NCBI RefSeq assembly: GCF_000026545.1
Contig: NC_011601.1
Length of the DNA stretch: 64,000 bases
Reading direction: 5' to 3' (one strand)
Source: Escherichia coli O127:H6 str. E2348/69
Lineage (GTDB): Bacteria; Pseudomonadota; Gammaproteobacteria; Enterobacterales; Enterobacteriaceae
The position numbers were made by a program. Positions 34,201 to 37,200 of this stretch are shown piece after piece; position 1 is the first letter of the stretch; each line of letters starts with the position of its first letter.

Positions 34201-37200
34201 AGGCCTTCCGCGCGGCGTGTTTAACCTTGTACTCGGGCGTGGTGAAACCGTTGGGCAAGAACTGGCGGGTAACCCAAAGGTCGCAATGGTCAGTATGACA
34301 GGCAGCGTCTCTGCAGGTGAAAAGATTATGGCGACTGCGGCGAAAAACATCACCAAAGTGTGCCTGGAATTGGGGGGTAAAGCACCGGCTATCGTAATGG
34401 ACGATGCCGATCTTGAACTGGCAGTCAAAGCTATCTTTGATTCACGCGTCATTAATAGTGGGCAAGTGTGTAACTGTGCAGAACGTGTTTATGTACAGAA
34501 AAGCATTTATGATCAGTTCGTCAATCGGCTGGGTGAAGCGATGCAGGCGGTTCAATTTGGTAACCCCGCTGAACGCAACGACATTGCGATGGGACCGTTG
34601 ATTAATGCCGCGGCGCTGGAAAGGGTTGAGCAAAAAGTGGCGCGCGCAGTAGAAGAAGGGGCGAGAGTGGCGTTGGGTGGCAAAGCGGTAGAGGGGAAAG
34701 GATATTATTATCCGCCGACATTGCTGCTGGATGTTCGCCAGGAAATGTCGATTATGCATGAGGAAACCTTTGGCCCGGTTCTGCCGGTGGTCGCATTTGA
34801 CACGCTGGAAGAGGCTATCTCAATGGCTAATGACAGTGATTACGGCCTGACCTCATCAATCTATACCCAAAATCTGAACGTCGCGATGAAAGCCATTAAA
34901 GGGCTGAAGTTTGGTGAAACTTACATCAACCGTGAAAACTTCGAAGCTATGCAAGGCTTCCACGCTGGATGGCGTAAATCCGGTATTGGCGGCGCAGATG
35001 GTAAACATGGCTTGCATGAATATCTGCAGACCCAGGTGGTTTATTTACAGTCGTAATGAGTGAAAGAGGCGGAGGTTTTTTCCTCCGCCTGTGCGCGTCA
35101 GAGTTTAGCGAATTTTTCGAGGGTGCGAATAAGCTGTGTGACGAAGCCATATTCGTTATCGTACCAGGCGACCGTTTTCACCAGTTGTAAATCGCCCACG
35201 GCGGTAATTTCCGTTTGCGTGGCATCAAACACCGAACCGAAATGGCTGCCAATGATATCGGAAGAGACTATTTCTTCATCAGTATAACCAAATGACTCGT
35301 TATTGTTTGTCGCCTTTTTAAGCGCGTTGTTCACCTCTTCGGCAGTCACTTTCTTTCCGAGAATCGACACCAGTTCAGTGACCGAACCTGTTTTCACCGG
35401 CACGCGTTGCGCATGACCTTTCAGTTTGCCGCTCAATTCCGGGATCACCAGACCAATGGCTTTTGCCGCCCCCGTAGTGTGGGGAATGATATTTTCTGCC
35501 GCTGCGCGTGAAGCACGTAAATCTTTACCACGTGGGCCATCCACCAGTGACTGGGTGCCGGTATAGGCATGAATGGTCGTCATCGTGCCGACTTCTATCC
35601 CGAAACTGTCATGCAAGACTTTGGCCATCGGCGCAAGGCAGTTAGTGGTGCATGACGCCACGGAAACAATGGTGTCGTTGCCATCCAGAGTGTCGTCATT
35701 GACGTTATAAACGATGGTTTTCATTTCACCGGCAGGGGCGGAAATCAACACCTTCTTCGCGCCAGCATCAAGATGCGCCTGCGATTTCTCGGCGGAGGTA
35801 TAAAAGCCTGTACATTCGACAATGATTTCTGCGCCTTTCGCTTTCCACGGAATATTTTTAGCCTCTTTTTCGGCGTAAACCGCGATACTTTTCCCATCAA
35901 CGATAAGTGAATCTTCCGTATAATCAACGCTCCAGGGGAACGGTCCGTAGTTTGAATCATGTTTCAGCAGGTAGGCGAGAATTTTTGGGGAAGTGAGATC
36001 ATTAATAGCGACAACGTCTATGTTGCTTTTGACTTCAAGTAATCGACGCAACACCAGTCGACCGATACGACCAAAACCATTAATACCAACTTTACTCATG
36101 GTCTTCTCCTGTCAGGAACGTTCGGATGAAAATTGATCCTTTCCAGGCTTAGACCAGGATGGCGGGATGGGCAATCTACATTCTTGCAGTGAAACGTAAC
36201 GTACTGAAAACGGGTGAACAATATTTAATGAAATTTTAAGAAAAGCCCGTTATGTTAACGGCAAATTATGTTAAAGCAGGAAATGTTATGGGAAATAAAT
36301 ACTCAAGGTTACAAATCAGCATTCACTGGCTGGTCTTTTTGCTGGTTATCGTAGCGTATTGCGCAATGGAGTTTCGTGGTTTCTTCCCACGTATCGATCG
36401 GCCCCTCATCAACATGATTCATGTTTCCTGTGGCATCTCAATTCTCGTACTGATGGTGGTTCGTCTTTTGTTAAGACTGAAATACCCAACCCCGCCGATT
36501 ACACCTAAGCCAAAACCGATGATGACGGGACTGGCGCATTTGGGCCATTTGGTGATTTATCTCCTGTTTATTGCGCTGCCAGTGATTGGTTTGGTGATGA
36601 TGTATAACCGGGGCAACCCGTGGTTTGCGTTTGGTTTGACGATGCCTTACGCTTCAGAGGCCAATTTCGAGCGGGTTGATAGCTTAAAGTCGTGGCATGA
36701 AACGCTGGCGAATCTGGGATATTTTGTCATCGGCTTGCACGCTGCGGCTGCACTGGCACACCACTATTTCTGGAAGGACAACACACTTCTACGCATGATG
36801 CCACGTAAACGTTCCTGAAGGATATTTAAAGAAAACGCCTGTACTAAAACCGACCCGTGGTACAGGCGAAGAATACGGGCCTACATCGGAAGCGCCTATT
36901 ATATTTATTTGTATGACAAATAAAACCATAATCCTTGTCTATACGTCCATCTGGCTTATCTTTAATCAATTCACCCGATCTTTGATCTCATCAACGGTAT
37001 CAAAATAACTCAGCGTATAACGTTCAAATCGAACATAAGATTCGATAAATCATGGAGGTTATATGAAAAAACTGGCACTTATCCTGGTTATGGGAACGCT
37101 TGTTTCCTTTTATGCCGATGCCGGGCGCAAACCCTGTTCTGGTTCGAAAGGGGGGATCTCACACTGTACGGCAGGCGGCAAATTTGTCTGTAATGATGGT

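Follow-up and report, generated by a model that had tools for sequence, protein, structure and literature searches.

The stretch of DNA described here, 64,000 nucleotides (nt) of contig NC_011601.1 from the enteropathogenic Escherichia coli O127:H6 str. E2348/69 (hereafter, the window), contains gapC, a gene for a type I glyceraldehyde-3-phosphate dehydrogenase (GAPDH) that is intact and very probably functional in this strain. The gene lies between aldA, with which it is convergent, and cybB, from which it diverges. Its open reading frame (ORF) begins with ATG, runs for 333 codons to a TAA stop and has no internal stop codons, as found both in the ORF listing and by reading the sequence, and RefSeq annotates it as an intact 'gap' coding sequence flanked by aldA and cybB. 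Three independent E2348/69 or O127:H6 assemblies have exactly this gapC sequence (100% identity), and so its intactness is not a read or assembly artefact. Likewise, a 25-kb stretch around the gene is 100% identical to three O127:H6/E2348/69 assemblies, and nothing else matches at that level. The coordinates of the gene, its signals and its neighbours are listed in Table 1.

By its score, its two complete domains and its full set of catalytic and phosphate-site residues, GapC is a member of the type I GAPDH family. It scores 448.8 bits against the NCBIfam equivalog model TIGR01534, 'type I GAPDH' (curated cutoff 367.2 bits), and covers model positions 1-330 of 330. Two Pfam domains are found, Gp_dh_N (PF00044) at residues 3-102 with 123 bits and Gp_dh_C (PF02800) at residues 155-313 with 198 bits, the latter over model positions 1-158 of 158. 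The protein retains the NAD (nicotinamide adenine dinucleotide)-binding motif, D34, S120, Cys150 within the motif SCTTNC, His177, T180 and R232, and the arginine of its 'ASRAA' segment aligns with the conserved arginine in 'GGRGA' of GapA, the main glycolytic GAPDH of E. coli.

A nearly identical protein has already been crystallized and assayed. EcGAPDH1 (PDB 7C5F and 13 related entries) is identical to E2348/69 GapC at 329 of 333 residues over the full length, and it has the same catalytic Cys150 and His177 with the same numbering. The four differences are Y60F, V161A, K262Q and N265T, and at each of these positions EcGAPDH1 has the residue that the common phylogroup A/B1-type allele encodes. 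EcGAPDH1 is an active, NAD-dependent enzyme with a Michaelis constant (KM) of 0.73 mM for glyceraldehyde 3-phosphate (G3P); its C150A mutant is inactive, its H177A mutant is about 8000-fold less active than the wild type, and its crystal structure contains four subunits (Zhang et al., Biomolecules 2021, PMC8615399). The gene is not named gapC in that paper (PMC8615399).

The E2348/69 gene is the orthologue of the gapC pseudogene of E. coli K-12, as indicated by the convergent aldA, the divergent cybB and a nucleotide identity of 97.6% to b4493 (24 differences over 1002 positions). In K-12 MG1655, b4493 (formerly gapC_1/gapC_2, b1416/b1417) is a pseudogene by annotation, is 1001 bp long and occupies the same position between aldA and cybB. 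Two of the 24 differences in the alignment are disabling. One is a TAA stop in place of the lysine codon 39. The other lies at codons 248-250, which read GGA AAA AAA, with a run of seven A residues (A7), in all other non-frameshifted E. coli alleles that we read; K-12 has lost one A from this run (A6), and the resulting frameshift puts a TGA in frame at codon 251. The E2348/69 allele has neither lesion, and its AAG within these codons is a synonymous change that interrupts the run of A residues. An earlier reading of the window from sequence alone (the original prediction) had described a continuous 333-codon frame with all of the catalytic motifs and had given the K-12 copy as disrupted; both statements agree with the alignment, which reveals no frameshift in the E2348/69 allele.

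One genome (L009) has the codon-39 stop and lacks the frameshift, which fits an order of events in which the stop preceded the A7 to A6 slip. As a separate observation, the corresponding gapC run in a Citrobacter amalonaticus assembly is longer by one A (A7) than in its Citrobacter relatives (A6); the site could be a recurrent slippage hotspot, or the additional A could be a long-read error.

The status of gapC in the species was surveyed in 5426 complete E. coli genomes, with 37-mer counts that are to be read as lower bounds. gapC DNA is present in 5417 of these genomes, with a coverage of at least 80% in 5409. The 37-mer with the K-12 codon-39 stop occurs in 1154 genomes (21%) and the one with the K-12 frameshift in 1050, while the wild-type codon-39 37-mer is found in 3716. 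The reciprocal count at the frameshift site is uninformative because the E2348/69 38-mer is itself a minority haplotype, present in only 308 of the genomes. The K-12 lesions are found in laboratory strains and old NCTC strains, and also in isolates from river water, cattle, duck, frog, pig, dog and human patients. The presence of the lesions in natural isolates implies that they mark a natural clade and are not a product of domestication; most likely, they are older than laboratory culture.

Twelve further genomes were taken from the evenly spaced match list of the census, and gapC was annotated and translated as intact in ten of them. One of the others carries the K-12 stop and one (strain 12867, NZ_CP159877.1; L010:466) has a 1-bp deletion at nt 166 of an allele that is otherwise that of strain 00_3305. 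We considered whether this deletion is a second widespread lesion and rejected the idea, as it occurs in one of the 5426 genomes; it is either a private, recent loss or a sequencing error. From the 21% count of the stop allele and the sample of 12, we estimate that roughly three quarters of E. coli have an intact gapC. The intact gene is the majority and ancestral state in E. coli and the K-12 copy is the derived one.

A plasmid-borne E. coli gapC was also considered and rejected. The five 'plasmid' records concerned (PLSDB entries NZ_OL790696.1, NZ_CP134663.1, NZ_CP141089.1, NZ_CP141085.1 and CP054253.1) are 4.8-4.9 Mb or 250-385 kb long; they are evidently chromosomes, or parts of chromosomes, that were wrongly entered as plasmids. 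The Pantoea homologue, on the other hand, is genuinely on a megaplasmid of about 0.5 Mb.

The pattern of variation among the intact alleles is that of a gene under constraint. Of the 77 sites that vary among 11 distinct intact alleles, 67 are third codon positions, and the ratio of nonsynonymous to synonymous divergence (dN/dS) in pairs with the E2348/69 allele is 0.026-0.078; across all pairs, mean dN over mean dS is 0.033, with dS as high as 0.15. The intact alleles are thus under purifying selection.

A scan that took a single genome for each bacterial species, and of which the best 80 loci were examined, places the gene in a wider context. The identity to E2348/69 GapC is 96-98% in other Escherichia species, 89-93% in Citrobacter, 84-89% in Klebsiella, Enterobacter, Kosakonia, Kluyvera, Leclercia, Lelliottia, Raoultella and others, and 75-78% in Pantoea and Erwinia; that is, full-length orthologues at 75-98% identity occur throughout the Enterobacterales among the matches listed. 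The closest relatives outside the Enterobacterales among these 80 loci are GAPDHs of Enterococcus and Listeria, with 69-71% identity over the full length, but their neighbours are not aldA or cybB. In most of the Enterobacteriaceae loci, cybB is directly 5' of gapC (Escherichia, Citrobacter, Kosakonia, Kluyvera, Leclercia, Lelliottia, Enterobacter and others), and in many, aldA is on the 3' side. A recent horizontal acquisition was rejected on the grounds of this cybB-gapC synteny in many genera and of the GC content, which is 48.4% in gapC and 49.4% in the window. Judging from these comparisons, gapC is an old, vertically inherited occupant of the aldA-cybB locus. One side observation concerns the Gram-positive relatives: the GAPDHs of Enterococcus diestrammenae and Listeria kieliensis are 92% identical to each other, which is high for members of different families and may reflect gene transfer among Firmicutes.

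Conserved signals precede gapC, and a stable hairpin follows it. The 190-bp region upstream of gapC, toward cybB, has a mean column identity of 95% in six Escherichia regions from E. coli, E. whittamii and E. albertii. In K-12, chromatin immunoprecipitation sequencing placed a peak of RNA polymerase containing sigma-S between gapC_1 and cybB (PMC4447067). At the other end of the gene, the hairpin between the aldA and gapC stops has a predicted folding energy of -18.5 kcal/mol as minus-strand RNA (z = -4.3 relative to shuffled sequences). It was missed by a simple terminator scan; we consider it a likely bidirectional terminator shared by aldA and gapC.

Several neighbouring loci are damaged, as the original prediction had noted when it set gapC apart from them. 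The trg gene, for a chemotaxis receptor, is left as a fragment, and the phenylacetate (paa) operon appears to have been cut to a paaX fragment and paaY, beside a truncated helix-turn-helix gene, which appears to be another lineage-specific loss in E2348/69. Insertion sequences (IS) have accumulated in two places; in the larger pile-up, ISEc21 lies within an IS3-family integrase fragment and a hok-family toxin gene adjoins the cluster. The contrast between gapC and these pseudogenes is due to nothing more than IS activity at these loci in E2348/69. Closer to gapC, the small RNA RydC is encoded just 3' of cybB.

Table 1. Features of gapC and its surroundings; positions refer to the window.
Feature	Position	Strand	Evidence
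gapC, type I GAPDH coding sequence	35098..36099	minus	ORF list, TIGR01534, Pfam, RefSeq WP_000048692.1
Codon 39, AAA (Lys) in E2348/69, TAA in K-12	35983..35985	minus	alignment, 37-mer counts
Codon of catalytic Cys150, TGC, within SCTTNC motif	35650..35652	minus	sequence
Codon of catalytic His177, CAT	35569..35571	minus	sequence
Codons 248-250, GGA AAG AAA in E2348/69	35350..35358	minus	alignment, k-mer counts
Shine-Dalgarno sequence AGGAG, 6 nt 5' of the gapC ATG	36106..36110	minus	sequence; invariant across six Escherichia upstream regions
gapC-cybB divergent intergenic region, both promoters presumed inside	36100..36287		alignment
GC-rich hairpin (putative terminator), 9-bp stem and 6-nt loop, between convergent aldA and gapC stops	35067..35090		RNA fold
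RydC small RNA	36829-36892	minus	Rfam RF00505, 90.5 bits (gathering score 48), full length
hok-family type I toxin gene (hokB locus in K-12)	37308-37442	minus	
IS pile-ups	~37539-43779 and 26073-27446		
ISEc21 (IS110-like)	37864-38940		
Additional IS3 fragments	39213-40727		
ISEc13 copies	40735-42108 and 26073-27446		
trg fragment	43336-43779		
paa operon remnant	24009-24970		

Taken together, we are highly confident that E2348/69 carries, at the ancestral locus, an intact and functional gapC allele whose product is a second type I GAPDH, NAD-dependent and phosphorylating, of a bacterial (Firmicute-like) lineage. By analogy with EcGAPDH1, the protein would form the usual GAPDH homotetramer and would convert glyceraldehyde-3-phosphate into 1,3-bisphosphoglycerate by way of a thioacyl intermediate on Cys150, with His177 acting as the base. 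Transcription would come from the divergent, conserved intergenic region, probably under certain conditions such as fresh water or stationary phase, and the gene product would supplement GapA, the main glycolytic enzyme, most likely as an auxiliary isozyme under particular conditions. This prediction of a conditional role rests on the sigma-S polymerase peak in the gapC-cybB region and on published expression in fresh water. According to a 2010 article (PMC2949598) that cites work from 1998 (Espinosa-Urgel & Kolter), environmental isolates have an intact gapC and laboratory strains a truncated one, and the gene is expressed preferentially in fresh water; another article (PMC1796617), with reference to Espinosa and Kolter, ascribes to gapC an adaptive role in aquatic survival.

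Some observations weigh against this interpretation. The EcGAPDH1 assays were done at pH 10 and 50 C, and on a protein that is four residues off E2348/69 GapC (PMC8615399). The sole match to a sigma-70-like promoter (36294-36265) is weak and no better than in shuffled sequence, and our literature search found no report on gapC expression in enteropathogenic E. coli (EPEC) or other pathogenic strains. Finally, about one fifth of the sequenced E. coli do not have a working gapC, and so the gene is dispensable in at least some niches.

Two of these points, the unconvincing promoter scan and the loss of the gene in one fifth of the genomes at no obvious cost, are also what one would expect if the gapC ORF were intact only by chance and the gene were as silent in E2348/69 as in K-12, with the disabling mutation yet to come. 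However, a silent gene would hardly keep dN/dS at 0.03-0.08 while dS reaches 0.15 and third positions account for 67 of 77 polymorphisms, nor would one expect it to be intact and syntenic in many enterobacterial genera with a conserved ribosome binding site and upstream region, or to have a near-identical counterpart that is enzymatically active. We consider silence very unlikely. Even less probable is that GapC has diverged to another role, be it as an erythrose-4-phosphate dehydrogenase (E4PD), as the GAPDH that is coupled to ArsJ in arsenate resistance or mainly as a moonlighting surface protein. GAPDH paralogues often specialise, and GapC does have sub-threshold matches to the E4PD and ArsJ-associated models. 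It belongs to the same superfamily as Epd (GapB), but its scores against the Epd models TIGR01532 and NF010058 (279.9 and 283.1 bits) are far under the cutoffs (530.55 and 539), and its score of 309.3 bits against the ArsJ-associated model NF033735 is also under the cutoff (450). An Epd-type or ArsJ-type function was rejected on these scores, whereas the TIGR01534 cutoff is passed; in addition, the neighbours are aldA and cybB, not arsJ, and the near-identical EcGAPDH1 turns over G3P with NAD+.

The original prediction had also called GapC eukaryote-like and had suggested that this lineage may retain it as a second GAPDH. Carried further, this would mean a eukaryote-like enzyme, possibly of eukaryotic origin, that the E2348/69 lineage has specially kept. 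The gene does share its name with the plant cytosolic 'GapC', and E. coli does own a eukaryote-like GAPDH, namely gapA; however, reciprocal PDB rankings of GapC and GapA, together with the identity matrix, place GapC outside the eukaryote-like GAPDH clade. Beyond the E. coli protein itself, the best solved structures for GapC are GAPDH chains at 411-485 bits (PDB search, top 60 matches), several of which we take to be Streptococcus and Staphylococcus (Gram-positive) entries; chains that are presumably lobster and yeast GAPDH match at 306-316 bits, and human GAPDH does not rank among the top 60. GapA, used as a control, displays the opposite pattern. Apart from the GapA entries, its matches are led by 'cytosolic' GAPDH with 613-616 bits; human liver GAPDH scores 483 bits and many further eukaryotic-looking entries score 450-495 bits, while the Bacillus-type 1gd1 scores 421 bits. 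GapC is only 47% identical to GapA, as against 69-71% to the Enterococcus and Listeria GAPDHs, and the latter are only 44% identical to GapA.

GapA (b1779; 331 residues compared to 333) thus has the same family, fold and catalytic residues as GapC, but its nearest solved relatives outside the GapA entries are eukaryotic and those of GapC are not. By these comparisons, the eukaryote-like paralogue is gapA, not gapC. The label was probably transferred from the plant cytosolic enzyme with the same name, because plant GapC dominated the literature matches. A eukaryotic source is also at odds with the GC content of gapC given above, and a retention specific to one lineage is at odds with gapC DNA in 5417 of 5426 genomes. 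The part of the suggestion that holds is that the gene is intact; there is nothing unusual in this, since the K-12 lesions occur in only about 21% of the genomes. We give the eukaryote-like reading hardly any probability, the lowest of the three alternatives.

A fuller account that builds on an intact and functional gapC can be proposed only tentatively, and we would put its chances at somewhat less than even. The K-12 lesions would not stem from domestication in the laboratory, which a later summary of the 1998 work implies, but would mark an old natural clade, amounting to about one fifth of sequenced E. coli, in which the gene was lost in two steps, the nonsense mutation at codon 39 first and the A7 to A6 slip at codons 248-250 afterwards. 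Strong purifying selection would maintain gapC in the other E. coli and in much of the Enterobacteriaceae as an isozyme for particular niches, such as cold or aquatic habitats outside of the host, and its loss would then reflect an ecological shift. The AAG in the E2348/69 allele would be a slippage-proof variant of the run in which K-12 lost an A.

As a discovery, the intact gene carries little weight. An intact gapC outside of K-12 is already a known and documented difference between K-12 and most E. coli; to judge from its citation in PMC2949598, it was reported in 1998. In addition, RefSeq annotates the gene routinely, and 14 crystal structures are available for a protein with only four residue differences. 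What is mildly new is that the K-12 lesions are present in about 21% of complete genomes, many of them from natural isolates, and this speaks against an origin in the laboratory.

In conclusion, it is K-12 that is atypical with respect to gapC. Metabolic models and knockout collections based on K-12 lack a second GAPDH that is probably present in about three quarters of E. coli strains, EPEC among them. Since the K-12 lesions are common to many natural isolates, the loss of this enzyme most likely predates laboratory culture.

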